This document shows, one piece after another, positions 6,810-23,743 of a stretch of 64,000 nt of DNA. A program made the translations under genes and the position numbers. This stretch comes from Acidobacteriota bacterium (lineage in GTDB: Bacteria > Acidobacteriota > Vicinamibacteria > Vicinamibacterales > Fen-181): contig JADGOB010000005.1 of assembly GCA_017883185.1 (NCBI GenBank), positions 1,644-65,643 of the forward strand, in the 5' to 3' direction. Within the stretch, counting starts at the first letter, position 1. Every line of letters begins with the position of its first letter. Below the pieces are notes generated by a model that worked only from the letters and a program-made list of their open reading frames with translations, searched no databases and had not been told where the DNA came from.

Positions 6810-6846
6810 CACCCATTCAGGCTTCAGGTAATTAAAGGTTACTTGG

Positions 6847-6875
6847 TGGCCTTCTGGCCTCCAGCCTCCAGCCAT
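6847..6875 (+). repeat. imperfect tandem heptamers (TGGCCTTC TGGCCTC CAGCCTC CAGCCAT)
   Basis: Read directly from the sequence. Lies in the 117-nt gap between the M23 stop and the DUF1015 start. Confidence 0.6.
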
Positions 6876-6926
6876 CGTAACCCTCTGCGCTGCCCGGCAA
6901 GCGGGCGGCCCGCCGCGAGTCATCAG

Positions 6927-8150
6927 ATGTCTACTATTCGTCCGTTCGCCGCACTCAGACCATCGCCCTCGAACGTCGACCGTGTGTCCGCCGTCCCCTA
7001 CGACGTCGTCAATGCCGAAGAAGCGAGGGCCATGGCCGCTGGCAACCCCCTCAGCTTCCTGCACATCTCGCGCGCGGAGATCGATCTCCCGCCCGCGACC
7101 GACCCGTACTCGGACGCTGTCTACAACAAGGCGCTCGAGAACTTCACCAACCTCCGCCAGGCGGCGCCGCTGGTGGTCGAGGATGTGCCCGCCGTGTATT
7201 TCTACCGGCTGAAGATGGGGAATCACAGCCAGACCGGCCTGGCCGCCTGCTACTCGGTGGGCGAGTACGACATTGACCTGATCAAGAAGCACGAGAAGAC
7301 GCGGCGCGACAAGGAAGACGACCGCACGCGGCACATCAGCACGCTTCGCGCGCAGACCGGGCCCGTCTTCCTGATCTATCGCGCGTCGAAGGCGATTGAC
7401 GCGGTCGCGGACACGGTGACAGGCGGTGCGCCACTCTTCGATTTCGAATCTGCCGACCAGGTTCGCCACACCGTGTGGAAGGTGACGGGGGCGGACCTCG
7501 CCGCGGTCGTCAAGGCGTTTGGCGAGCTGCCGTGCGTCTACATTGCGGACGGGCATCACCGGGCCGCCAGCGCGGGCCGCACGCGGAAGTACCTGGCCGA
7601 GAAGTCGCCGAACACCGACAACAGCGAGGCCAACTGGATGCTGGCCGTCGCGTTCCCGGACAACCAGACCCAGATCCTGCCCTACAACCGGGTGGTCAAG
7701 GATCTGGCCGGCAAGACCCCCGAGGCATTCCTCGCCGAACTGAAGATGCGCGTCAAGGTGGCGGACGGGACGCCGAACCCGACGAAGAAGGGCGAAGTGG
7801 GGATGTACCTGGCCGGCAGCTGGTATACGCTGTCTCTCGAGGCGGCTGCCCGCGCGACCGATGTCGGCAGCACGCTGGACGTGAGCCTGCTGCAGGACCA
7901 GGTGCTCTCGCCGCTGCTCGGCGTCGGCGACCCGCGGACCGACAAGCGGATCGACTTCGTCGGCGGCATCCGCGGAACCTCGGAGCTCGAGAAGCTGGTG
8001 AATGGGCGCAAGGCGGCGGTGGCGTTCTCGATGTTCCCCGTGGGCGTCAACGACCTGATTCGAATCGCGGATGCCGGCGAGATCATGCCTCCCAAGTCCA
8101 CCTGGTTCGAGCCGAAGCTTCGTGATGGCCTTCTCACTCATCTCATCTAA
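6927..8150 (+). CDS. DUF1015 family protein
   Basis: Real part of ORF 6843..8150, from MSTIRPFAALRP. It has the AVPYDVV and YIADGHHRAASA (DGHHR) motifs characteristic of DUF1015. Confidence 0.8.
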   Translation: MSTIRPFAALRPSPSNVDRVSAVPYDVVNAEEARAMAAGNPLSFLHISRAEIDLPPATDPYSDAVYNKALENFTNLRQAAPLVVEDVPAVYFYRLKMGNHSQTGLAACYSVGEYDIDLIKKHEKTRRDKEDDRTRHISTLRAQTGPVFLIYRASKAIDAVADTVTGGAPLFDFESADQVRHTVWKVTGADLAAVVKAFGELPCVYIADGHHRAASAGRTRKYLAEKSPNTDNSEANWMLAVAFPDNQTQILPYNRVVKDLAGKTPEAFLAELKMRVKVADGTPNPTKKGEVGMYLAGSWYTLSLEAAARATDVGSTLDVSLLQDQVLSPLLGVGDPRTDKRIDFVGGIRGTSELEKLVNGRKAAVAFSMFPVGVNDLIRIADAGEIMPPKSTWFEPKLRDGLLTHLI

Positions 8151-8152
8151 CC

Positions 8153-8172
8153 GGACGCGGGTAGCCGCGTCC
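8153..8172 (+). other. intercistronic GC hairpin between DUF1015 and serA
   Basis: GGACGCGG-GTAG-CCGCGTCC, a perfect 8-bp stem. It starts 3 nt after the DUF1015 stop and ends 14 nt before the serA ATG, with AAGGATGG as the SD. Confidence 0.5.
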
Positions 8173-8186
8173 AAGGATGGACAGCC

Positions 8187-9452
8187 ATGAAAGTGCTTGT
8201 TGCTGACAAGTTCGAAAAGAGCGGGATCGAGGGGTTGACGACGGCGGGGTGCGAGGTCATCTTCGAGCCAGACCTGAAGGACGCCACGCTCACGGAAGCC
8301 ATCGGGAAGACCGGAGCCGACGTGCTCGTCGTGCGCTCCACGCAGGTGACCGAGCCGATGATGGACGCGGGCAAGCTCGCGTTGATCGTCCGCGCGGGGG
8401 CCGGCTACAACACGATTGACGTGAAGGCGGCCAGCAAGCGCGGCATCTACGTGTCGAACTGCCCGGGGAAGAACTCGATCGCGGTGGCGGAGCTGGCCTT
8501 CGGCCTGATCCTGGCCCTCGACCGCCGTATCCCGGACAACGTCGTCGAGTCGTTGCGCGGCAAGTGGAACAAGAAGGAGTACTCGAAGGCGAGGGGGTTG
8601 TATGGCGCCACGCTCGGTATCCTCGGCTTCGGAAAGATCGGGCAGGAGCTGGCCAAGCGCGCGATGGCGTTCGGCATGAACCTGGTGATCTGGAGCGAGC
8701 TCGGCGTGCGCGTGGACCGCGATTCCATCCCCGTGGACCTGCCGCTGCTGTTGCAGGTCAGGCCTGGTTCTGGCGCGCTCATCGAAGAGCGCATCACCGT
8801 CGTCGAGACGCCGGGCGAGGTCGCGGAGAAGTGCGACATCCTGAGCATCCATCTCGCGTCGAGCGCGGCGACGAAGAACATCGTCAACGCTGACGTAATC
8901 GGCAAGCTGAAACCGGGTGCGTTCGTCATCAACACGGCGCGCGCGGACGTGATGGACTACAAGGCGCTGGCGAAGGCCGTGAAGGAGAAGGGCGTCCGCG
9001 CGGGGCTGGACGTCTATCCGGGCGAGCCGACGAGCGCAACCGGCGACTTCGCCCAGGAACTGCTGGGGCTGCCCGGCGTGTACGGCACGCACCATATCGG
9101 CGCCTCGACCGACCAGGCGCAGGAAGCGATTGCGGCCGAAACCGTGCGGATCGTGAAGACCTTCAAGGAGACCGGCCGCGTCCCGAACGTCGTCAATCTT
9201 GCCAAGAAGACGCCGGCGAAGTACTCGATGATCGTCCGCCACAAGGACCAGCCGGGGGTGCTCGCCTGCGTGTTCGGGAAGCTTGGAAGCGCCAAGATCA
9301 ACGCGCACGAGACCGAGAACATCGTCTTCGAGAACGCCGAAGCGGCCATCGTCCGTATCAACGTGGACAAGCAGCCGCCCGCCGAGCTGGTGAAGTCGCT
9401 CGAGACGTGCGACGGCATCCTCGAGGTGACCGTGGTCGAGCTGGTCGGGTAA
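8187..9452 (+). CDS. serA: D-3-phosphoglycerate dehydrogenase with C-terminal ACT domain
   Basis: GILGFGKIGQELAKRA NAD-binding motif, INTARADVMD, and HHIGAST catalytic His region. The C-terminal ~70 aa are ACT-like (MIVRHKDQPGVLACVFGKLG...). Confidence 0.9.
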   Translation: MKVLVADKFEKSGIEGLTTAGCEVIFEPDLKDATLTEAIGKTGADVLVVRSTQVTEPMMDAGKLALIVRAGAGYNTIDVKAASKRGIYVSNCPGKNSIAVAELAFGLILALDRRIPDNVVESLRGKWNKKEYSKARGLYGATLGILGFGKIGQELAKRAMAFGMNLVIWSELGVRVDRDSIPVDLPLLLQVRPGSGALIEERITVVETPGEVAEKCDILSIHLASSAATKNIVNADVIGKLKPGAFVINTARADVMDYKALAKAVKEKGVRAGLDVYPGEPTSATGDFAQELLGLPGVYGTHHIGASTDQAQEAIAAETVRIVKTFKETGRVPNVVNLAKKTPAKYSMIVRHKDQPGVLACVFGKLGSAKINAHETENIVFENAEAAIVRINVDKQPPAELVKSLETCDGILEVTVVELVG

Positions 9453-9508
9453 GGTATCCTGTAAGGGCTTTTGGCCATTAATCGATTTTTCTTGAGGAGA
9501 TCATCCCA

Positions 9509-10615
9509 ATGGTGACGACCACCCGAGTCTTCAACTTCGCGGCCGGACCTGCCGTCCTGCCGCTTCCCGTGCTCGAGGAGGCGCAACGCGACCTGGTGGC
9601 GCTGCCCGGCGTCGGGATGTCGGTGCTCGAGATCAGCCACAGGTCGAAGGCGTTCGAGGCGATTATCGGCGAGTGCGAGGCCAACACGCGCAAGTTGGCC
9701 GGCATTCCCGACAACTATCACGTGCTGTTCCTGCAGGGGGGCGCGACCACCCAGTTCTCGATGGTGCCGATGAACCTGCTGCCAGCCGGTTCGTGGGCGG
9801 ACTATATCGTGACCGGCGCCTGGTCGTCGAAGGCGGTCAAGGAAGCGAAGAAGGTGGGCGCCGTCAACGTGGCGTTCGACAACAAGGCCGAGAACTACCT
9901 CCGGCTCCCGAAGAAGGGAGAGCTGCAGCTGACGCCGGGTGCCGCCTACGTGCACGTCACGACCAACGAGACGATCCACGGCGTCGAGTTCCACCAATTG
10001 CCCGACTTCGGCGACGCGACGGTGGTGGCGGACACTTCGTCGCACATGTTCAGCCGCCCGATCGACGTCACGAAGTACGGGTTGATCTACGCGGGCGCGC
10101 AGAAGAACATCGGCCCAGCGGGTGCGACGCTCGTCATCGTCCGCGACGACCTGGTGAAGAAGGCCGCCGAGCGGCCGTCGTACGCGAACCTCCCGGTCAT
10201 GCTGCAGTACGGCACGCACGTCTCCGAGAAGTCGCTCTACAACACGCCGCCCTGCTTCACGATCTACACGATCGGGCTGGTGATGAAGTGGCTGGTTGCA
10301 ATCGGCGGCCTCGAGGGAATCGACAAGATCAACGAGCGCAAGGCCGGGAAGCTGTACGCGGAGATCGACCGCACCGGTTTCTACCGCGGCCACGCGGCGA
10401 AGGACTGCCGCTCGCGGATGAACGTCACCTTCCGGCTGCCGAACGAGGAACTCGAGGCGAAGTTCGTGAAGGAATCGAAGGCGGCGGGCCTCGACGGCCT
10501 GAAGGGCCATCGCTCGGTGGGCGGCCTGCGCGCGTCGATCTACAACGCGTTCCCGGAGGAAGGCGTGGACGTCCTCGTGTCGTTCATGCAGGATTTTGAA
10601 CGCAAGAACGGATAA
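9509..10615 (+). CDS. serC: phosphoserine aminotransferase
   Basis: VFNFAAGPAVLP...EISHRSKAFEAII...AGAQKNIGPAG...GHRSVGGLRASIYNA; this is a textbook SerC. Confidence 0.95.
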   Translation: MVTTTRVFNFAAGPAVLPLPVLEEAQRDLVALPGVGMSVLEISHRSKAFEAIIGECEANTRKLAGIPDNYHVLFLQGGATTQFSMVPMNLLPAGSWADYIVTGAWSSKAVKEAKKVGAVNVAFDNKAENYLRLPKKGELQLTPGAAYVHVTTNETIHGVEFHQLPDFGDATVVADTSSHMFSRPIDVTKYGLIYAGAQKNIGPAGATLVIVRDDLVKKAAERPSYANLPVMLQYGTHVSEKSLYNTPPCFTIYTIGLVMKWLVAIGGLEGIDKINERKAGKLYAEIDRTGFYRGHAAKDCRSRMNVTFRLPNEELEAKFVKESKAAGLDGLKGHRSVGGLRASIYNAFPEEGVDVLVSFMQDFERKNG

Positions 10616-10733: not shown

Positions 10734-10772
10734 CGGGCCGCCCGATGCCTATCGGGCGGCCCGTCGCTTTTC
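10734..10772 (+). terminator. Rho-independent terminator downstream of serC
   Basis: Perfect 13-bp stem CGGGCCGCCCGAT / ATCGGGCGGCCCG with loop GCCT, followed by TCGCTTTTC. Confidence 0.7.
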
Positions 10773-11065
10773 GCGGTGAGTATCTCCGCTGGCCGCCTTC
10801 CCTCGATCAACTGGCCGGTGAGGCGGCGGACGCGGCCCGGTCTGTCCTGCCGGGCTCCGCTCGGCAGACCTCGCAAGTCGCCCGTCACGCCAACCCGGGC
10901 CACGTCCGCCTCTCTCGTCTGGCCGGCGGCTGTGGGGCGACAGCGGCGGACGGGGGTGGGATGGCTCGCGACCCCCGCGGCGCCTTCGGGGCCGTGATCT
11001 TGCAGCGCGGCGCCAAGCCCGGCAGAATGGGGGCCTCCCATGCCGGGAATCGGGGGCCAATCGCC

Positions 11066-12943
11066 ATGCCACCAGACACACAGACCGTTCGCGAACGCGC
11101 CGAGCAGTTCCTGAAGGCCGCGGCCGACTTTCACCTGGGCAGCCTCCTCACGGAGTCGTCGCACCCACGCACGGTCGACTTGAGCGACGTGGCTCGCGGG
11201 AGCGCCGAGGCGGGCCTGGCCGCGCTCTTCGACGTGGACCGCGACGTCGTCGCGAAGTACGTCGCCTGGTCGCAGACCAAGCAGCCCGGACGGATGGCTC
11301 GGGCCGCTCTTGAGACACTGAGACGAGGGGGGCGCATCTTTTTCACCGGCTGCGGCGCCACCGGGCGACTCAGCATCCAGCTCGATTCCATCTGGCGCGC
11401 CTTCTGGCAGGACCGGCGGGCGGGCGGGAACGCCGCGCCCTCTCCCGATGGGTGGGAAGACCGCACGCGAAGCGTGATGGCGGGCGGCGACTACGCGCTG
11501 ATCAAGTCGGTCGAAGGCTTCGAGGATTTCGCGCCTTTCGGCCGCAAGCAGATTGCAGACATGGGCCTCGCAGCAGGCGACGTGGTCTTTGCGATTACGG
11601 AGGGCGGAGAGACGTCCTTCGTGATCGGCACCGCCTGGCAGGGCGTCGAAACCGGTGCGCGCGTCTTCTTCGTCTATAACAACCCGGACGATGTCCTCCG
11701 CGACGTGCGGCGCAGCCGCGAGGTGCTGGACGATCCACGCATCGAGAAGATCAACCTGACGTCCGGTCCCATGGCGGTCACGGGCTCGACGCGGATGCAG
11801 GCGACGAGCATCGAGTTGCTGGCCATGCTGACCGTCCTCGAGGTGGTGCTGCGCGATCTCCTGGGCGCGAACGGCCGGCTCGGCGCCGGGGTCGGGAGGG
11901 CCGAGGACGTGGTGGCCGAGATGAGGACCGCGATCGAAGAGGTTCACGCCGAACTCTCGAGTTCACGCGTCCTGCAGCCGCTCGCGCGGATCGTGGAGAC
12001 TGAGGAGCGGGCCTACCGCGGCGGCGCACGGACGTCCTACTTTGCCCATTCGCTGGGCATCGACGTGCTCACAGACACGACCGAGCGCAGCCCCACGTTC
12101 TGCACGCCGTCGTTCAGGAAATGGGACGACACCGAGGCGTCGGAGTCGTGGGCCTTCCTCTTCACCCCGGAGGCGACGACCGAGGCGGCGTGGCCCGGCC
12201 TGCTGCGCCGTGCCCCGCAGACCATCGAATGGACCGAGGAGGACCTCCGCGCGCTCCTCGACGACGAGGCGGCGGCCCGGCAGGCGGCAGTGCTCCGCGA
12301 TATCGGGCATCGCGATCTGATGCGGTTCCGCATCGGGTTGGACGGCCTTGCATACAGGCCGATCCGAAAGGGCGACGCCGTCACCCTCGTCGTGTCCGAG
12401 GCCGACTTGCTCCTGCTGGCCGCCCCCGGCGCGACCTTCGCGAGTTGCCTGATGACCGCGTCCGAACGCGGGGCGGACGGGATGCTGATCGCGGTCGGCC
12501 GGCGGGAAGCCATCGACGGCCTGGCCTCGTCAGCCGGGCGCCGGCTGGCCAGCCGGTTCGTGGCATTGACCGTTCCCGACACGCCATTCCTGCTGAATCC
12601 GATGACCAGGATCGGCGTGAAGATGCTGCTGAACGCGCTGTCCACCTGCACGATGGTGCGCCTGGGGCGGGTGCTGGGCAACCGGATGATCTGGGTGGTC
12701 CCGAGCAACCTGAAGCTGATCGACCGGTCCACCCGATACGTCCGGGACCTGGCGAAGGTGTCGTACGAGCAGGCGTGCCACACGCTGTTCGAGGTCATCG
12801 ACTACGTCGAGCCTCGCCGCAGCGCGGGAAAGGCCTATCCGCCGCCGGTCGGCGTGGCCATGATGCGCCTGCGTCATCAGATCGGATTGGAAGAAGCGGA
12901 GGCCAGGATTCTCGAGGAGCTGTCGATCGCACCCGGCCCCTGA
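11066..12943 (+). CDS. double-SIS protein of the MurQ / glucokinase-regulatory-protein (GKRP) family
   Basis: Real part of ORF 10745..12943, from MPPDTQT. SIS1 has FFTGCGATGRLS...ITEGGETSFV...GSTRMQATS. A second SIS-like half ends with the MurQ-type C-terminus KMLLNALSTCTMVRLGRVLGNRMIWVVPSNLKLIDRSTRYV. At 625 aa it is about twice the size of MurQ. Confidence 0.7.
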   Translation: MPPDTQTVRERAEQFLKAAADFHLGSLLTESSHPRTVDLSDVARGSAEAGLAALFDVDRDVVAKYVAWSQTKQPGRMARAALETLRRGGRIFFTGCGATGRLSIQLDSIWRAFWQDRRAGGNAAPSPDGWEDRTRSVMAGGDYALIKSVEGFEDFAPFGRKQIADMGLAAGDVVFAITEGGETSFVIGTAWQGVETGARVFFVYNNPDDVLRDVRRSREVLDDPRIEKINLTSGPMAVTGSTRMQATSIELLAMLTVLEVVLRDLLGANGRLGAGVGRAEDVVAEMRTAIEEVHAELSSSRVLQPLARIVETEERAYRGGARTSYFAHSLGIDVLTDTTERSPTFCTPSFRKWDDTEASESWAFLFTPEATTEAAWPGLLRRAPQTIEWTEEDLRALLDDEAAARQAAVLRDIGHRDLMRFRIGLDGLAYRPIRKGDAVTLVVSEADLLLLAAPGATFASCLMTASERGADGMLIAVGRREAIDGLASSAGRRLASRFVALTVPDTPFLLNPMTRIGVKMLLNALSTCTMVRLGRVLGNRMIWVVPSNLKLIDRSTRYVRDLAKVSYEQACHTLFEVIDYVEPRRSAGKAYPPPVGVAMMRLRHQIGLEEAEARILEELSIAPGP

Positions 12944-12976: not shown

Positions 12977-14308
12977 CTATTTCTTCACGAACTTCTTCAC
13001 GAACTGCCCGACCAGCTGTTCCAGGTTCGGCGTGCCGATTTCCTGCAGCTGGTAGGTCACGCGCACGGTCGGCTTCTTGATCTTGACGATGCGGTTGAGG
13101 TCGATTGGCGTGCCGATGACGACGACATCGCACGGCACCTTGTTGATCGTCGCCTCGAGGTCTTTCACCTGTTCGGTGCCGTAACCCATCGCGGGCAGCA
13201 GCATCCCGATTCCCGGGTACTTCTTGTAGGTCTCGGTGATCGACCGCACGGTGTAGGGCCTCGGGTCCACCAGCTCGCTCGCGCCGTACTTCTGCGCGGC
13301 GACCACGCCGGCGCCGATCTTCATCTCACCGTGCGTGAGCGTCGGCCCGTCCTCGACCACTAGCGCCCGCTTGCCGGTCAGCCGCTCCGGGTGGTCGATG
13401 AAGATGGGCGATGCGGCATCGACCACCACCGCCTTCGCGTTCACCGTCCGGATGTTCGCGCGCAACTGGTCAACGGCCTTCGGATCGGCGCTGTCGATCT
13501 TGTTGATGATGACGATGTCCGCCATGCGGAGGTTGGCCTCGGCCGGGTAGTAGGACAGCTCGTTGCCGACGCGCAGCGGGTCGGCCACGACGATCGCCAG
13601 GTCGGGCTTGTAGAACGGCATGTCGTTGTTGCCGCCGTCCCACAGGATGACGTCTGCTTCGGCCTGAGCCTGCTCGAGGATGGCGCCGTAGTCCACGCCG
13701 GCGTAGATGATGATCCCCTCGACGATGTGCGGCTCGTACTCCTCCATCTCCTCGATGGTGCACTTGTGCTTCTTGAGGTCGGCCAGGCTCCCGTAGCGCT
13801 GCACCTTCTGCTTCTCGAGGTCGCCGTACGGCATCGGGTGGCGGATGGCGGCAACCTTCAGCCCGTGCTGCTGCAGCAGGTGCGCGACGCGGCGGCTGGT
13901 CTGGCTCTTGCCCGACCCGGTGCGCACGGCGCAAACGGAGATCACCGGCTTCGTGCTCTGAATCATCGTCGGCTGCGCGCCGAGCAGCTTGAAGTGGGCC
14001 CCGCACGCGTTGGCGATCGAGCTCCGGCTCATCACGTAGTTGTAGCGCACATCGCTGTAGGCGAAGACCACCTCTTCGACCTTGTGCTTGCGGATCAGCG
14101 ACTCGAGCTGCAACTCGGCCACGATCGGGATCCCCTTTGGGTAGAGGCGGCCGGCGAGCGATGCCGGGTACTTCCGCCCGTCGATGTTGGGGATCTGGGT
14201 GGCGGTGAACGCCACGACCTCGTAGCGCTCGTTGTCACGATAGACGGTGTTGAAATTGTGGAAGTCGCGCCCGGCGGCTCCCATGATGATGGTCTTGATC
14301 CGGTGCAT
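12977..14308 (-). CDS. P-loop GTPase of the cyclic 2,3-diphosphoglycerate synthetase (cPGS)-like family
   Basis: Real part of ORF 12977..14557, from MHRIKTIIMGAAGRDFHNF. Walker A is AVRTGSGKSQTS, there is a WDGGNND segment, and IINKID gives an NKxD guanine-specificity motif. Confidence 0.7.
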   Translation of the reverse strand: MHRIKTIIMGAAGRDFHNFNTVYRDNERYEVVAFTATQIPNIDGRKYPASLAGRLYPKGIPIVAELQLESLIRKHKVEEVVFAYSDVRYNYVMSRSSIANACGAHFKLLGAQPTMIQSTKPVISVCAVRTGSGKSQTSRRVAHLLQQHGLKVAAIRHPMPYGDLEKQKVQRYGSLADLKKHKCTIEEMEEYEPHIVEGIIIYAGVDYGAILEQAQAEADVILWDGGNNDMPFYKPDLAIVVADPLRVGNELSYYPAEANLRMADIVIINKIDSADPKAVDQLRANIRTVNAKAVVVDAASPIFIDHPERLTGKRALVVEDGPTLTHGEMKIGAGVVAAQKYGASELVDPRPYTVRSITETYKKYPGIGMLLPAMGYGTEQVKDLEATINKVPCDVVVIGTPIDLNRIVKIKKPTVRVTYQLQEIGTPNLEQLVGQFVKKFVKK

Positions 14309-15540: not shown

Positions 15541-15567
15541 CTGTCTCTCCTCGTCACCCGATCTCAA

Positions 15568-15594
15568 CCACAAAGGCCACAAAGGACACAAAGA
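15568..15594. repeat. three tandem nonamers CCACAAAGG CCACAAAGG ACACAAAGA
   Basis: Read directly from the sequence. Lies in the 212-nt gap between the ATCase-like stop and the rocD start. Confidence 0.7.
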
Positions 15595-15675
15595 CGATGC
15601 GTGCCCAGCGACCGCACAATGCAGTGGTCGCGCGGTGGCGCCACCCGGTCGAAGCCCTCAGCGGGTAGCCGCGGC

Positions 15676-15706
15676 GATCTCCGTGATCTCCGTGGTTGTC
15701 TCCCGT
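15676..15706. repeat. tandem nonamers GATCTCCGT GATCTCCGT GGTTGTCTCCCGT (reverse complement ACGGAGATC x2)
   Basis: Read directly from the sequence; same intergenic gap as the previous tract. Confidence 0.7.
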
Positions 15707-15752
15707 CGTCGTCAGCTGGCCTTCTGCCCGAGCAGGGCTTCGGCCCTGCTCT

Positions 15753-16664
15753 CTACTGTTCGTCCCACAACATCGTCAGCAGCGCCATGCGGACGTACAG
15801 CCCGTTGGTCGCCTGGCGGAAGTACAGCGCCCGGGGGTCTTCGTCCACCGACTTGTCGATCTCGACCGTCCGCGGCAGCGGGTGCAGGATCAACGCATCC
15901 CGCTTCATCGTCTGGAGCACCGACGCGTTGATCGTGTAGCGGCCATGGCTGCCCCGGTCCGTCAGTCGCTCCGGGCGGATGCGCGTCTGGTAGACGACGT
16001 CCACCTCGCGAAGCACCTTCGCCGTATCCTGTTCGAGGGCAAACCAGACGTCGTGCTCCTCGAGGTGCTCGAGGATGTCCGCCTTCATCTGCATTTCGGG
16101 CGGGCTGACGAAATAGATCTTCACCCGCTCGAACTTGCTGAGCAGGTAGGCGAGCGACCGCACGGTCCGCCCGCGGTCGAGCTCGCCGATGAACGCGATG
16201 CTCAGCCCCTCGATCGGCCGCTCCCGGGAGATCGTGTAGAGGTCGAGGAGTGCCTGCGTCGGGTGCTGCCCACCGTTGCCGTCGCCGGCGTTGATCACCG
16301 GTACCTTCGACACCTGCGCCGCGCGCTTGGCCCCGCCCGCCTGCGTGTGGCGGATGACGATGACGTCCGAGTAGCCGCCGAGGATCCGGATCGTGTCTTC
16401 GAGCTGCTCGCCTTCGACCTCGGACGAGAAGAACCCGGCCTGCTCGGTGGAGAGCACGCGGCCGCCGAGGCGGTACATCGCCGCCTCGAACGAGAACCGG
16501 GTCCTGGTGGACGGCTGGTAGAACAGCGTCGCCATGATCCGGTTGTGATAGTCGTTGGTGCCGCCACGCGCGGCGATCTTCTCCATCTGTCGCGTGCGGC
16601 CGAACAGCTCCATCAGGAGCGGCACGGTGAACTGCTGCGACTCGACGACATGCTGTAGCTTCAT
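15753..16664 (-). CDS. aspartate carbamoyltransferase-family protein (non-canonical active-site residues)
   Basis: Has STRTR, HPTQ, GRTVRS and HPLPR motifs, i.e. the ATCase type rather than OTC. However, SSEVEGEQLEDTIR replaces the SxxKGETLxDTIR loop, and TRIRPER replaces TR(V/I)QxER. Confidence 0.8.
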   Translation of the reverse strand: MKLQHVVESQQFTVPLLMELFGRTRQMEKIAARGGTNDYHNRIMATLFYQPSTRTRFSFEAAMYRLGGRVLSTEQAGFFSSEVEGEQLEDTIRILGGYSDVIVIRHTQAGGAKRAAQVSKVPVINAGDGNGGQHPTQALLDLYTISRERPIEGLSIAFIGELDRGRTVRSLAYLLSKFERVKIYFVSPPEMQMKADILEHLEEHDVWFALEQDTAKVLREVDVVYQTRIRPERLTDRGSHGRYTINASVLQTMKRDALILHPLPRTVEIDKSVDEDPRALYFRQATNGLYVRMALLTMLWDEQ

Positions 16665-18789: not shown

Positions 18790-20070
18790 CTATGGCTGAA
18801 CCGGCCCGCGAGGCCGGCGGCGGCGGCGGCGGCGAGCGGGGAGGCGCGCGGCCGGCGGCTGGAGCGCGCCGCTCTCGGTCAACTCGGCCACGAGTGCGCG
18901 CCAGCGGGCCACGGCCTCTTGCGACCCGCCATGGATCTCGAGCCACGCGAGCGCGTCAGGAAAGGCACCGCGTATGAGCAACGCCCGCGCCGAACGCGGG
19001 GAGATGTTGGGATCGCGCAGCCGGCGTTGAAGCGCGACGACCTGGTACAGGCGTTCGATATCGCGCCGCGCGACCGGCAGCGTGCCAAGCCACGGACCAA
19101 TCGCCTCGCGCGCCGCGTGCCCGCCATCGAGCGAGAAGCCGAGGGGGACGAGCAGGCTGCCAAGCAGCACGGAGTTCGTGAACGCCCCGGGAACCGACGA
19201 GAAGCGCTGCCGGTACGCGTCGAGCCGCTCGAGCGACTGCCACACCGGCTCCGCGCTGGACGGGCGCTGCAACTCGGGCGTGATCGCCTCGAGCAGGCCG
19301 AGGCGCGCCGCGGTGCGAAAGACGGATGCGCTCGCGCCGGTCCGCAGGACCTTGTAGTACTCTTCGATCAGCCGCGCGGGGGCGCTGCGGGCAATCTCGC
19401 CGCGGTTCCCGCGAATCGCCTCCTCGACGGGAGGATCGAGCGCGAACCCCAGCCGCTCGGCAAACGCCACCGCACGCAGCATGCGCACCGGGTCTTCGCA
19501 GAACCGTTCGTCGGGATCCCCGATCGCGCGGATCACGCGCTCGCGGAGATCGCGCAACCCGTCTACGTAGTCGATAATGGAAAAAGTTGCGATATCGTAG
19601 AAGAGGGCGTTGATCGTGAAGTCGCGGCGGAACGCGTCTTCCTCGGGCGTGCCGAAGGTGTTGTCGCGATGGATCAGCAGATCGCGCGCCGCCGCGGACG
19701 CCGAGATGCCCTGCCCGGCGTCGTCGGGCGGCGGCAGCGGATCGTCGATCGCTTCGGCTGGCGGCACGTGCCTGCGAAACGTCGCGACCTCGATAATCTT
19801 CTGTCCGAACTTCACGTGCACCAGCCGGAAGCGACGACCGATCACAAAGCAGTTGCGAAAGAGTCGCTTGACCTGGTACGGATGCGCCGAGGTGACGATA
19901 TCGAAATCTTTCGGCCGGCGACCGAGCAGCAGATCGCGCACGCTTCCACCGACGAGGTACGCGATGAATCCCGCGTCCTTGAGACGGTACAACACCTTCA
20001 GCGCGTCGTGGTCAATGTCGCGACGCGACAAGGGATGTTCGGAGCGCGGGATGACGGTCGGCTCCACCAT
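18790..20070 (-). CDS. pcnB: poly(A) polymerase I / tRNA nucleotidyltransferase family
   Basis: VLYRLKDAGFIAYLVGGSVRDLLLGRRPKDFDIVTSAHPYQVKRLFRNCFVIGRRFRLVHVKFGQKIIEVATFR matches the PcnB head domain closely. The C-terminus is Arg-rich. Confidence 0.8.
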   Translation of the reverse strand: MVEPTVIPRSEHPLSRRDIDHDALKVLYRLKDAGFIAYLVGGSVRDLLLGRRPKDFDIVTSAHPYQVKRLFRNCFVIGRRFRLVHVKFGQKIIEVATFRRHVPPAEAIDDPLPPPDDAGQGISASAAARDLLIHRDNTFGTPEEDAFRRDFTINALFYDIATFSIIDYVDGLRDLRERVIRAIGDPDERFCEDPVRMLRAVAFAERLGFALDPPVEEAIRGNRGEIARSAPARLIEEYYKVLRTGASASVFRTAARLGLLEAITPELQRPSSAEPVWQSLERLDAYRQRFSSVPGAFTNSVLLGSLLVPLGFSLDGGHAAREAIGPWLGTLPVARRDIERLYQVVALQRRLRDPNISPRSARALLIRGAFPDALAWLEIHGGSQEAVARWRALVAELTESGALQPPAARLPARRRRRRRPRGPVQP

Positions 20071-20089
20071 GGCGAGAGGATTATATCAA

Positions 20090-20947
20090 ATGCCGGGCTA
20101 TCAACACACACAAGTCCCTGCTCTGCAAAGGGTTAGCGCACGCATCCTCCAGGCGGCGCTTCTGGCCGCCCTCTCCGGCCTGCCGGCGCAGGCCCAGGGA
20201 GGCCTCGAGTTCGCCCGCCAGCTCTACAATCAGGGACGCTACGATCAGGCGATCACAGCCGCCGCGCGCCTGCGCTCAACCCCGGTAGCCGACGCGGCCT
20301 ACCTCGTCCTCGGGCGTTCGTACCTGGAACGGTTTCGGAAAAGCACCGATCACGCCGACCTGGTCGCCGCTCGCGAGGCGCTGAACCAGATTCGCACGGC
20401 GCGGCTGGCCTCGCGAGATCGTATCGACTACCTGGTGGGCCTAGGCGAGTCGCTCTATCTCGGGGAATCCTACGGACCGGCCGCCGAATTGTTCCAGGGA
20501 GCCCTGGAGCGAAGCCAGGACATGGGACCCCGCGCGTTTGAACGGGTGTTCGACTGGTGGGCCACCTCGCTCGACCGCCAGGCGCAATCGGGAGAGGCGG
20601 AAGACCGGGATGCGGTCTACATCATGGTTCGCGACCGAGCCAGGGTCGAGTTAGGGCGAATGCCCTGCTCGGCCGCGGCCGCCTACTGGCTGGTCTCGGC
20701 ATATCGCAGTTTAGGGGAACTGACCAAGGCATGGGACGCGGCAGTGGCTGGATGGGTTCGGGCACCGCTCGGCGAGGACCAGGGACGTGCGCTGCGGGCT
20801 GACCTCGATCAACTTGTCCTGCAGGCGATCATCCCCGAACGCGTTCGCGTCATGGCCTCGAGCGACCGCGACCGCGACCGCGCTGCTACCTCCATGCGGG
20901 CGGAGTGGGACGGAATCAAGAAAGACTGGGCGACGAAGCGGCCATAG
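20090..20947 (+). CDS. secreted TPR-like hypothetical protein
   Basis: Real part of ORF 19610..20947. It has a signal-like LQAALLAALSGLPAQAQG and a TPR-like ARQLYNQGRYDQAITAAARL. The start is ATG at 20090 (or 20069); everything upstream is antisense to pcnB. Confidence 0.5.
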   Translation: MPGYQHTQVPALQRVSARILQAALLAALSGLPAQAQGGLEFARQLYNQGRYDQAITAAARLRSTPVADAAYLVLGRSYLERFRKSTDHADLVAAREALNQIRTARLASRDRIDYLVGLGESLYLGESYGPAAELFQGALERSQDMGPRAFERVFDWWATSLDRQAQSGEAEDRDAVYIMVRDRARVELGRMPCSAAAAYWLVSAYRSLGELTKAWDAAVAGWVRAPLGEDQGRALRADLDQLVLQAIIPERVRVMASSDRDRDRAATSMRAEWDGIKKDWATKRP

Positions 20948-21031
20948 ACCCGGCCGGTTGCGGCAGCGGGGGGAACGTGGATGCGGCAGGGCAACGCGCG
21001 CTCCTCCTCTCCATTTTTGGGGTTCGGCAAA

Positions 21032-23743
21032 TCACTTTTTGGCTTCCCGCCAGTTCCTCCCGACGCCGATATCGACCGTCAAAGGAACAGATAGGGCAAC
21101 TGCCCCTTCCATCCCGGACCGAACCAGCGCTGCCACTTCATCTGTCTCGTTCTGAGGCGCCTCGAAGAGCAGTTCGTCGTGGACGGTGAGGATCATCCGC
21201 GCCCGCCCTCCCGCCGTCCGCCGAACCTCGAGCGCACGGTGGACGTCGATCATGGCCCGCTTGAGGATGTCTGCCGCCGTCCCCTGGATCGGGAGGTTCA
21301 CCGCTACCCGCTCGGCTGCCGACCTGACCTGGCCGTTCCGACTGGTCAACTCAGGCACCAGGCGGCGTCGGCCGAACAGCGTGTTGACCACTCCGGTCCG
21401 CCGTGCCTCCTCCAGGAGGTGATCGATGAACCGGCGCACTCCGGGGAAGCCGGCGAAGTAGGCGTCGATCAACGCCTGGGCCGCCTGTTGCGACACGCCG
21501 ATGTCACGGGCCAGCGTGAACGCCGTCTTCCCGTACAGCAACGCGTAGTTGATGATCTTCGCCCGCCGCCGCAGTTCGTGCGGGCCGAGGCCGCTGTCTG
21601 GGCCAAACACCCTGAGCGCCGTCTGATCGTGGATGTCGTCGCCCCGGCGGAACGCCTCGGTGAGCGTGGCGTCGCCTGAGAGGTGGGCCAGCACCCGCAG
21701 TTCGATCTGCGAGTAATCGGCCGAGATCAAGACGCTCCCGGGTTCCGCGACGAACGCTGCCCGGATCTCGCGTCCAAGCTCGGACCGAATCGGGATGTTC
21801 TGCAGGTTCGGATCGCTGCTGCTCAACCGGCCCGTGGCCGCCACTGCCTGGTTGAAGCAGGTGTGAACCCGCCCGGTCGCCGGGTTGACGAGTTGCGGCA
21901 GCGCGTCGATGTAGGTGCCCTTCAGCTTCTGCACGCTGCGCCAGTCGAGGACCAGGCGCGGCAACTCGTGCATGAGCGCGAGTTCCTCGAGCACCTCGAC
22001 CGCCGTGGAGGCCACGCGTGTCTTTCCGGTCCGCTTGCCCGCCGGCAGTTTCAGCTTGTCGAAGAGGATCTCGGACAACTGCTTGGGCGAGTTGATGTTG
22101 AACGACTCGCCCGCCAGTTCGAAGATCTTCGCGCTCCGAACGGCCAGGTCGCGTTCCAGGCGTTCCGACAGGCGCCCGAGCACGGCGGAATCCACCTTGA
22201 CCCCCGCTCGCTCGATGTCGGCGAGCACGGGAAAGAGCGGCAACTCGAGCTCGCGGTACACCTGGTCGAGGTGCTCGGCAGCAAGCAGGGGTGCCACGCG
22301 TCCGGCAATCTGTAAGGCCAGGTCCACGCGCTCGCCCGCGAAATCGATCAAGGCCGCGGGAGGCAGGTCCGCCGTCCCCAGCGCCTTCGCGCCTCGCCCG
22401 AAGACGTCTTCCTCGGTCAGCGCCTTGTAGCGAAGATGCTCGAGCGCGTTGTTTTCCAGGGAATGCGACGACCGCGTCGCGTCGAGCAGGTAGCTGGCCA
22501 GCATCGTGTCGAACGCCATCCCGCGCAGCTCGATCCCGTAGCGCGCGAGCGTGATGGCGTCGAGCTTCAGGTCGTGGCCCACCTTCTCGACCGCCGCATC
22601 TTCCAGGACATCCTTCAACGCCTCGAGCGCCGCCCGGCGGTCAGCCTGCGGTCCGGCGTCGAGGGCGTGGTGCGCCATCGGGACGTACCTCGCCTGCCGG
22701 TCACTCGTCGCGAAGGCGATGCCGACGAGGTCGGCCTGCACCACCGGGCCCATCGTGGTCAGGGTGCGGAGGGCGAAGCGGCCGGCGCCCCTCAACTCGG
22801 ACGCGAGCGCGTTCACCCCCTCGAGGGTCTCGACGATCGCGTAGTCCTTGGTCACCGTCTCCGCTGTGGGCGCAAACTCGCTCAGCAGCGACCTGAACCC
22901 GAGCTCGCCGAACAGCTCGAAGCACGCCTGCCTGTTCGGCCCCCGGTAGCGGAACGCCTCCACCTCGAAGGTGATCGGCGCGTCACGCCGGATCCGCGCG
23001 AGTTCGCGGCTCTGCTTCGCGAGGTCGGCGTGAGCCAGCAGGGCTTCCCGGTACCTCTTCTGCGGCACCTCGCCGGCACGCTCGAGCAGTGCGTCGAGCG
23101 ACCCGAACGTCGTCATCAGCTCTCGTGCGCCCTTCTCTCCGACGCCCGGCACCCCCCTGATGTTGTCGACCGCGTCCCCGGTCAGCGCCAGCACGTCCAC
23201 CACCTGGTGCGGCGGGACGCCGAACTTCTCTTTCACCGCGACCTCGTCGTACCAGGTACCCTCGTCGCGCGGGTTGAACACGCGCACGCCGTCGTGCACG
23301 AGCTGGAACATGTCCTTGTCGCCCGTGACGATGACGACGTGATACCCCTCGTGGATGGCCCTCTCGGTCACCGTGCCGATGACATCGTCGGCCTCGAACC
23401 CCACGCACGAAAGGATCGGGACGCCCAGCGCTTCGCAGGAGCGGTGGACGTACGGAATCTGTTCGGCAAGATCGTCGGGCATCGCGGGCCGGTTCGCCTT
23501 GTAGTCGGCGGCGAGCGCGGATCTGAAGGTGGGGCCGGCCAGGTCGAACGCGCACGCGATCAACTCGGGGCGCTGGTCGGCCACGAGCTTGCGCAGCATG
23601 GCCACGAATCCGTAGACGGCGTTGGTCGAACGGCCGTCCGGCCCGGTCAACTCGCGGATCGCGTGGTAGGCGCGATACATCTGCGAGTTGCCGTCGATGA
23701 GGAACAGGATCGGATGCGAGACCATTGTGTGTTCGGTGTTCAT
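21032..23743 (-). CDS. polA: DNA polymerase I
   Basis: 903 aa with a 5'-nuclease N-terminus (LIDGNSQMYRAYHA), a 3'-5' exonuclease-like middle, and the polymerase motifs DYSQIELRVLAH and QGTAADI. Confidence 0.97.
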   Translation of the reverse strand: MNTEHTMVSHPILFLIDGNSQMYRAYHAIRELTGPDGRSTNAVYGFVAMLRKLVADQRPELIACAFDLAGPTFRSALAADYKANRPAMPDDLAEQIPYVHRSCEALGVPILSCVGFEADDVIGTVTERAIHEGYHVVIVTGDKDMFQLVHDGVRVFNPRDEGTWYDEVAVKEKFGVPPHQVVDVLALTGDAVDNIRGVPGVGEKGARELMTTFGSLDALLERAGEVPQKRYREALLAHADLAKQSRELARIRRDAPITFEVEAFRYRGPNRQACFELFGELGFRSLLSEFAPTAETVTKDYAIVETLEGVNALASELRGAGRFALRTLTTMGPVVQADLVGIAFATSDRQARYVPMAHHALDAGPQADRRAALEALKDVLEDAAVEKVGHDLKLDAITLARYGIELRGMAFDTMLASYLLDATRSSHSLENNALEHLRYKALTEEDVFGRGAKALGTADLPPAALIDFAGERVDLALQIAGRVAPLLAAEHLDQVYRELELPLFPVLADIERAGVKVDSAVLGRLSERLERDLAVRSAKIFELAGESFNINSPKQLSEILFDKLKLPAGKRTGKTRVASTAVEVLEELALMHELPRLVLDWRSVQKLKGTYIDALPQLVNPATGRVHTCFNQAVAATGRLSSSDPNLQNIPIRSELGREIRAAFVAEPGSVLISADYSQIELRVLAHLSGDATLTEAFRRGDDIHDQTALRVFGPDSGLGPHELRRRAKIINYALLYGKTAFTLARDIGVSQQAAQALIDAYFAGFPGVRRFIDHLLEEARRTGVVNTLFGRRRLVPELTSRNGQVRSAAERVAVNLPIQGTAADILKRAMIDVHRALEVRRTAGGRARMILTVHDELLFEAPQNETDEVAALVRSGMEGAVALSVPLTVDIGVGRNWREAKK

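Follow-up and report, generated by a model that had tools for sequence, protein, structure and literature searches.

The question raised by this locus is why a gene named as an aspartate carbamoyltransferase (ATCase) should lie in an arginine cluster, beside carbamate kinase, and encode a protein in which the aspartate site of an ATCase is altered. The gene, referred to here as ATCL (ATC-like transcarbamylase), is found on contig JADGOB010000005.1 of an Acidobacteriota bacterium, within an analyzed stretch of 64,000 nucleotides that is called the window below. Public databases uniformly name the members of the ATCL clade "aspartate carbamoyltransferase" (pyrB). Our tentative answer, held at slightly less than even confidence, is that ATCL may be a carbamoyl phosphate (CP)-dependent transcarbamylase that is coupled to carbamate kinase and has a second substrate other than aspartate; it would then add a fourth type to the "pseudo-ATCases".

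Fold and active site of ATCL

ATCL falls in the ATC II lineage of the transcarbamylase superfamily. Both domains of the two-domain superfamily were detected in its product (OTCace_N, PF02729, 5e-40; OTCace, PF00185, 1.5e-30), and the superfamily CP motifs SxRT, HPxQ and HxLP were all located. The best solved-structure match was Arabidopsis ATC (6ypo; HMMER, E 1e-92). An AlphaFold2 (AF2) model built on a 141-sequence alignment had a pLDDT of 94.3, with the 80s loop as its sole soft region, and its top Foldseek matches were ATCases with template modelling (TM) scores of 0.9-0.95. Models of ornithine carbamoyltransferase (OTCase) gave only 130-154 bits against cutoffs of 281-306, and the putrescine carbamoyltransferase (PTCase) model gave 99.6 bits against a cutoff of 500. 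The protein also reads HPLP and not HCLP, which along with DxxxSMG (OTCase) or the PTCase loop would mark those two enzymes.

Residues of ATCL are numbered here by E. coli PyrB, with Arg230, Glu161 and Asp163 of the window protein corresponding to E. coli positions 231, 162 and 164. In a global alignment to E. coli PyrB, the landmark residues of which were checked, the CP ligands S52, T53, R54, T55, R105, H134, Q137 and the P266-L267-P268 loop are retained, as are equivalents of Arg167, Arg229 and Arg234. The same alignment gives the replacements E50 to Q50, K84 to E84, T87 to Q87, D162 to E161, K164 to D163, Q231 to R230 and K232 to P231. HMMER aligned ATCL with 6ypo without gaps in both critical segments, placing FFSSEVEGEQLEDTIR over EFSSAAKGETLEDTIR in the 80s loop and 'YQTRIRPERL' over 'YQTRIQRERF' in the 240s segment. 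The first-pass annotation of this DNA had aligned the protein by eye and proposed that Lys84 is replaced by Glu and Gln231 by Arg, while STRTR, HPTQ, HPLPR and GRTVRS are kept. Both replacements were recovered in the two alignments and all four motifs are where it had placed them. Since the HMMER alignment to 6ypo, the mapping to E. coli PyrB and the AF2 model agree, the hand alignment was right and not shifted. The first-pass annotation had made no mention of the changes at positions 50, 82, 87, 162 and 164 or of the residue inserted ahead of HPTQ, nor of the OTCase gene that precedes carbamate kinase or the arcE-like gene downstream.

The replaced residues are among those by which ATCases are recognized. 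The RxQxER sequence of the 240s region is the ATCase-defining motif, in which Gln231 binds the aspartate beta-carboxylate; ATCases are taken to have Lys84 and RxQxER without exception, and FxExSTR, which contains Glu50, is a further mark of them (PMC4581275). ATCL has R-I-R-P-E-R, Glu and F-Y-Q-P-S-T-R at these places, and it retains Arg167 and Arg229, which bind carboxylate, along with the HPLP loop. In ATCases, Lys84 comes from the 80s loop of the neighbouring chain and contacts both CP and the aspartate alpha-carboxylate. Two conformations of this loop are known from plant ATCase: Lys166, which aligns with Glu84, moves onto the transition-state analogue when the loop is in its active conformation, and Ala164, which aligns with Glu82, faces the ligand in the alternative one. 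In both conformations, ATCL would thus offer a carboxylate where ATCases offer lysine or a small side chain. With Lys84, Lys164 and Lys232 gone and Glu82, Glu84 and Asp163 in their stead, the site as a whole is much more acidic. Such a change would suit a substrate that carries a cationic group together with a carboxylate, for example a ureide of the basic amino-acid type; a cationic ureide or amine is, on electrostatic grounds, our guess.

Table 1. Features of the ATCL locus, in window coordinates
Feature	Coordinates	Strand	Evidence or remark
ATC-like transcarbamylase gene (ATCL), 303 aa	15753..16664	(-)	Open reading frame with Pfam and NCBIfam matches; AF2 model
Q50-P-S52-T-R-T-R56 codons	16497..16517	(-)	STRTR intact; Glu of FxExSTR replaced by Gln
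80s (CP) loop, S80-S-E82-V-E84-G-E-Q87	16404..16427	(-)	Glu84 codon (16413..16415) replaces Lys84; Glu82 and Gln87 clade-specific
HPTQ CP motif	16254..16265	(-)	One-residue insertion before the motif (GDG-NGGQ-H)
GRTVRS with Arg167 equivalent	16155..16172	(-)	Preceding 'GELD' replaces the D162 and K164 equivalents
T-R228-I-R230-P-E-R233	15966..15986	(-)	RxQxER in ATCases; Arg230 codon (15975..15977) replaces Gln231
HPLPR motif, intact	15870..15884	(-)	
Ornithine carbamoyltransferase (arcB/argF), 305 aa	17658..18575	(-)	NF001986 428.7 bits and TIGR00658 403 bits, both above cutoffs
Carbamate kinase (arcC), 313 aa	16714..17655	(-)	TIGR00746 365 bits, cutoff 358
Ornithine-oxo-acid aminotransferase (rocD-like), 396 aa	14350..15540	(-)	TIGR01885 547 bits, cutoff 378
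P-loop protein, 443 aa, probable ArcE homologue	12977..14308	(-)	No NCBIfam match; weak Pfam cobW match
GC-rich hairpin, 9 bp, no T tract	15730..15751	(-)	Directly after the ATCL stop, in the 212-nt gap (15541-15752) before the aminotransferase

Conservation of the altered positions

The replacements are a property of a clade and not of the window protein alone. A cluster search was performed over 1.84 billion cluster representatives, and the best 150 (50%-identity clusters) were scored at positions 84 and 231. Lys84 was present in 135 of these 150 and Gln231 in 132. Glu84 together with Arg231 was found solely in the representative of the window's own cluster, which is 75% identical to ATCL, and in its fragments; the next representative, at 59% identity, is fully canonical. 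The clade was then defined as 263 distinct proteins, comprising the 120 closest homologues (78-100% identity, from Vicinamibacterales wherever named) pooled with sequences from 160 genomic loci. Identity does not fall below 63.5% within the clade or rise above 61.7% to anything outside it.

Position 84 in the 263 proteins is Glu in 243, Asp in 8, Lys in 6 and each of five other residues once. Position 231 is Arg in 205, Leu in 34, His in 10, Lys in 9 and Gln in 3, and position 50 is Gln (102), Glu (64), Ala (47), Arg (31) or Ser (10). Glu82 is found in 249 proteins and Arg229 in 259, the other four having Gln or Cys at the latter position. Within the 120 closest homologues, Glu82 is invariant, Glu84 is present in 119, position 231 is Arg in 93, Leu in 26 and His in 1, and position 50 can be Q, R, S, A, E, K or L. 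Gln87 and Pro232 are fixed both in these homologues and in 78 species-level genomes. S52, R54, T55, R105, H134, Q137 and HPLP are invariant in the same two sets, with R167, R229 and R234 invariant or nearly so. A metagenomic sub-branch (L114, L123, L124, L129, L132, L141 and L146) has Lys84 back (FSSEIK[AE]EQ) with His or Leu at 231, and in three of its members SMRTR takes the place of STRTR. An acidic residue at position 84 is thus preferred but not obligatory.

Strong purifying selection acts on ATCL, as judged from these sequences. When the window is compared with Terriglobia-type loci, ATCL has a median identity of 74.6%, higher than OTCase (71.7%), carbamate kinase (70.8%) and the probable arginine synthetase ArcE described below (56.9%). 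The loss of key ATCase residues would be expected of a decaying pyrB duplicate without function, yet this explanation is rejected as having next to no probability. About 260 distinct sequences, drawn from two or more classes, keep an intact frame, the gene is conserved above OTCase and carbamate kinase, and the new residues E82, Q87 and P232 are fixed.

The variation also bears on whether aspartate could still be the substrate. ATCL might be a genuine ATCase with a rewired aspartate site, fed by arginine-derived CP, in which the positive charge of Lys84 would be provided by Arg231, or by Arg50 where position 231 is Leu, and Glu84 would pair with this arginine across the subunit interface. Arg50 does covary with Leu231, being present in 16 of 34 Leu231 variants versus 14 of 205 Arg231 variants, which suggests that the site is compensated and not decaying. 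R167, R229, R234 and L267 are retained, leaving two of the four aspartate ligands in place. Further, the closest relatives of the clade are true ATCases, with 59% identity to a canonical pyrB product and E 1e-92 to Arabidopsis ATC, and the equivalog cutoff of the ATCase model TIGR00670 is passed. Despite these points, Lys84 and RxQxER are present in essentially every full-length canonical representative, and positions 50, 84 and 231 vary within the clade as those of an essential aspartate site should not. Replacement of Lys84 in E. coli, in the 1986 mutagenesis of Robey et al., reportedly nearly abolishes activity. We therefore regard a rewired ATCase, the main rival to our reading, as unlikely, while giving it real weight.

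An invariant CP site combined with a variable second-substrate site would also be expected of a non-catalytic or CP-binding-only pseudoenzyme, that is, an ATCase-fold trimer that hands labile CP between OTCase and carbamate kinase or regulates both. An analogue exists in the inactive dihydroorotase PyrC', which is a structural subunit of Pseudomonas ATCase; we know of no pseudoenzyme with a transcarbamylase fold. The residues of chemistry and domain closure (H134, Q137, the P-L-P loop, R167 and R234) are, however, kept as strictly as the phosphate-binding ones, and replacing Lys84 with Glu should weaken CP binding rather than strengthen it. On this evidence, a pseudoenzyme appears improbable.

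A five-gene module around carbamate kinase

Five genes run head to tail on the (-) strand of the window in the order OTCase, carbamate kinase, ATCL, ornithine aminotransferase and a 443-aa P-loop protein (Table 1). The location between carbamate kinase and ornithine aminotransferase had been recognized in the first-pass annotation, and the coordinates of both neighbours agree with it. The OTCase stop codon abuts the start codon of carbamate kinase, and 49 nt separate the carbamate kinase stop from the ATCL start. No arginine deiminase, pyr or arg biosynthetic genes were found in the 64-kb window by tblastn and by Pfam searches of 30 further genes, and tblastn for a second ATCase in the window matched ATCL and OTCase alone.

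Public records name the 443-aa protein either 'predicted GTPase' or 'cyclic 2,3-diphosphoglycerate synthase'. In a structural comparison its AF2 model matched cDPGS best (8oru, E 4.5e-21; 8ork), followed by Aquifex LpxK (4lkv and 4ehy; 4ehy E 4e-10). Michimori et al. reported cDPGS and LpxK as distant relatives of TK2200, the arginine synthetase ArcE, which catalyzes the reaction arginine + ADP + Pi <-> citrulline + ATP + NH3 (PMC11032458). According to the same authors, arcE often has arcB and arcC nearby, and Acidobacteria (Koribacter) are among the organisms that carry it (PMC11032458). Because the relationships to cDPGS and LpxK match those reported for TK2200, the 443-aa protein is probably ArcE, a likeness drawn from shared distant relatives. 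With OTCase and carbamate kinase scoring above their curated cutoffs, and with the 443-aa protein sharing the distant relatives and public names of TK2200, the locus is a candidate arginine synthetase module. Similar to the ArcE-ArcB-ArcC system of Thermococcus kodakarensis, it combines an ArcE-like protein, OTCase and carbamate kinase without arginine deiminase (PMC11032458, PMC13260591). In contrast to the published pathway, which has no ATCase-like member, the Acidobacteriota cluster has ATCL built into it and usually ornithine aminotransferase as well. A second 442-aa open reading frame (ORF) in locus L006, considered as a possible second ArcE paralogue, proved to be unrelated.

The module was followed in two sets of loci. 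A scan of one genome per species with the window carbamate kinase as query gave 80 loci, from Vicinamibacterales, Terriglobales/Terriglobia, Acidobacteriaceae, Sulfotelmatobacter, Korobacteraceae and a few bins labelled as other phyla, and a metagenome scan with the ATCL protein as query gave 80 more. In about 77 of the 80 genome loci, ATCL is the next gene after carbamate kinase, and two others end at a contig edge. The only clear exception among the 80 genomes is a metagenome-assembled genome (MAG) of Acidobacteriaceae (L065, 10900-11200), which has ArcE, OTCase and carbamate kinase with neither ATCL nor the aminotransferase. In the metagenome set, all 71 informative loci have carbamate kinase directly before ATCL on the same strand, and the aminotransferase is directly downstream of ATCL in 63 of 75. 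The carbamate kinase and ATCL frames even overlap by 4 nt in one locus (L001). Gene order is ArcE-OTCase-carbamate kinase-ATCL-aminotransferase in Terriglobia and OTCase-carbamate kinase-ATCL-(aminotransferase)-ArcE in Vicinamibacterales. The five-gene module of arcE-like gene, OTCase, carbamate kinase, ATCL and aminotransferase is conserved in both groups. Exact-sequence cluster look-ups for cultured strains with ATCL returned MAG records only. Single-contig MAGs with the module include CAWEZL010000001.1 (5.35 Mb) and ERZ25039480 contig_9077 (7.04 Mb), and it is also present in CAVUJA010000001.1 (3.2 Mb). In the 7.04-Mb MAG (L169, 7352-7732), carbamate kinase is called as a 126-aa fragment, which is probably due to a long-read frameshift and not to a real truncation.

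When the ORFs of 80 loci were clustered, no further neighbours conserved across lineages were found beyond the five module genes, with the exception of a DDAH/arginine-dihydrolase-like gene in 9 Terriglobia loci. This gene encodes 275 aa, follows the aminotransferase (L062, 8654-9481 (+), and eight other loci) and scores 190 bits with NF045659 and 181 bits with NF052232, both below cutoff. It is possibly a second entry for guanidino compounds into the module. In the window, the module sits between pcnB-polA and serC-serA-DUF1015-M23 peptidase (flanks at 6843-10615 and 18790-23743), and this flanking synteny is kept in Vicinamibacterales relatives; only the window has, between serC and the arcE-like gene, an additional gene for a SIS-domain protein (10745-12943). 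A terminator or riboswitch was considered for the gap after ATCL and rejected, as the hairpin there has no T tract, a consensus scan calls none and the fold z-score is -0.87. Shortly before the start of the aminotransferase gene, the same gap has CTTTGTG three times at a spacing of 9 nt (15569-15593), and these repeats could be a regulator binding site.

The locus would be explained by a rewired ATCase if carbamate kinase or the arginine synthetase pathway supplied the CP for pyrimidines, possibly through channelling. In T. kodakarensis, ArcE and ArcB supply CP for pyrimidine synthesis, as shown physiologically (PMC13260591), and channelling of CP to OTCase and ATCase has been reported for the carbamate kinase of Pyrococcus (PMC6022934). 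In keeping with such a role, no second ATCase was found in the window or the 160 loci, the only stretches in which one could be looked for. The pyrimidine context of an ATCase gene is nevertheless missing: no pyr genes or canonical ATCase were found in the 160 fetched loci, the gene is never seen with pyr genes, and its distribution follows that of carbamate kinase. The exceptional Acidobacteriaceae locus, where the other three enzymes occur without ATCL, likewise argues against this explanation.

Gene context bears on the pseudoenzyme as well. Pairing with carbamate kinase is obligate, with coding sequences that sometimes overlap, the module is biochemically complete without ATCL, and protection and channelling of CP are recognized needs (PMC6022934). 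These features are as would be expected of a CP-handling partner, and they are to be set against the strict retention of catalytic residues described above.

Function of ATCL and its place among transcarbamylases

By fold and sequence, ATCL is close to the ATC II ATCases, represented by E. coli PyrB, plant ATC (6ypo/6ys6) and archaeal PyrB. It shares their length, a fold at TM 0.9-0.95, 37-59% identity, identical STRTR, HPTQ and HPLP motifs, and R105, R167, R229 and R234. The clade differs from them in that Glu50 is not conserved, Lys84 is replaced by Glu, Gln231 by Arg, Leu or His, Asp162 by Glu and Lys164 by Asp, and an extra residue precedes HPTQ. It also differs in context, having carbamate kinase as a neighbour instead of pyrI, pyrC or pyrR. 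The nearest canonical relative (P0122 in L005; 59% identity, Candidatus Dormibacterota) adjoins pyrR. Dormibacterota pyrB of this type and plant chloroplast ATCase (6ypo) are the nearest canonical relatives of the clade, and all three have the plant-type 'FSS' CP-loop, which mediates inhibition by uridine monophosphate in Arabidopsis.

A precedent for ATCase-like proteins of other function is provided by the pseudo-ATCases of Barba et al. (2013), which are ATC II-related paralogues annotated as ATCase that have kept STRT and HPTQ and lost RxQ (PMC4016543). Subgroup 1 adjoins carbamate kinase and works phosphorolytically, the ureidoglycine carbamoyltransferase Rxyl_2847 is among the pseudo-ATCases, and one of them has been shown to phosphorolyse allantoate (PMC4016543). 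ATCL is similar to subgroup 1 in its adjacent carbamate kinase. The subgroups are marked by an altered H265-P268 motif combined with changes at 230-232, namely HPLA with AIA/AIS/SIA, H[ST]LP with GX[SC], and HSLP with VXP (PMC4016543); unlike subgroups 1-3, the ATCL clade has HPLP with R-I-[R/L/H], keeps Arg229 and matches none of the three motif sets. It is also much closer to true ATCases and lies in an arginine cluster, whereas pseudo-ATCases lie in purine or hydantoin clusters. We searched the literature on pseudo-ATCases, arginine synthetase, Vicinamibacter and catabolic ATCase paralogues and found no description of the clade.

A transcarbamylase gene beside arcC is also found in the catabolic pairs of ArcB, PTCase and YgeW with carbamate kinase, in which CP is used to make ATP. 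Those enzymes, however, belong to the OTC or knotted branch, and the ATCL module already has an OTCase on the other side of carbamate kinase. The first-pass annotation had drawn parallels with putrescine, oxamate and YgeW-type enzymes. The oxamate analogy is dated, as the oxamate transcarbamylase of E. coli has proved to be AllFGH (PMC11326118).

Other ATC II-like representatives without Lys84 and/or Gln231 were also seen (P0144, P0195, P0241, P0256 and P0137). The gene for P0137 (L007, 8001-8942; SSEMAG-N / TQLSKDH) comes directly after carbamate kinase and is accompanied by two amidohydrolases, an amidase and an AllH-family gene. Its locus looks like a further uncharacterised catabolic ureide cluster.

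Based on these comparisons, the following scheme is proposed for ATCL. CP would be bound in the usual way, and the aspartate-specific half of the ATCase site would be gone, the neighbouring subunit inserting Glu84, flanked by the second new Glu at 82, instead of Lys84. The reaction would be that of any transcarbamylase, ureido compound + Pi <-> amine + CP, with a pair other than carbamoyl-aspartate and aspartate. The protein would be produced along with carbamate kinase, as a constant member of the module, and would exchange CP with the adjacent enzyme (CP + ADP <-> ATP + NH3 + CO2). A transcarbamylase that does not use aspartate and is tied to ArcC had also been suggested in the first-pass annotation. 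That suggestion gains from the clade-conserved changes, the invariable adjacency of carbamate kinase and the pseudo-ATCase precedent (PMC4016543); what we infer, on the strength of sequence and context, is catalysis itself, its phosphorolytic direction, the coupling to carbamate kinase and the class of substrate.

Several points weigh against this proposal. ATCL is 59% identical to genuine ATCases, and it scores 290.5 bits with the TIGR00670 asp_carb_tr model, above the equivalog cutoff of 236.95, and 263.7 bits with NF002032, for which the cutoff is 263. The TIGR00670 model thus does not separate the clade from true ATCases. The second-site positions vary in the clade (R, L, H, K or Q at 231; occasionally K, V, S, N or G at 84), which is unusual for a tight small-molecule pocket. 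No enzyme that produces a second ureido substrate is present in the module, and ArcE, OTCase, carbamate kinase and the aminotransferase already make up a complete route from arginine to glutamate semialdehyde. Nor was a canonical pyrB found alongside ATCL within the stretches covered, the window and the 160 loci.

Either a new transcarbamylase activity or a CP-handling pseudoenzyme would make ATCL an unnoticed fourth component of the bacterial ArcE-ArcB-ArcC pathway in Acidobacteriota, and the balance of the sequence evidence tips modestly towards this broader conclusion. Such a component would open a second ureido compound to substrate-level phosphorylation, or it would manage CP between OTCase and carbamate kinase. 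If so, several hundred database entries for 'aspartate carbamoyltransferase' are mis-annotated.

Transcarbamylases are a textbook example of substrate specificity being switched by a few residues, and more catabolic enzymes are explicitly anticipated in reviews of the family (PMC4581275, PMC6022934). The ATCL clade is abundant in soil and peat Acidobacteriota and is tied to carbamate kinase within the recently discovered arginine synthetase pathway. Should ATCL prove instead to be a working ATCase without Lys84 and Gln231, the assumed indispensability of both residues for aspartate transcarbamylation would be overturned. If it acts on a new substrate, as we tentatively propose, a dominant soil phylum would have an extra ATP-yielding reaction, and a systematic annotation error would be corrected.

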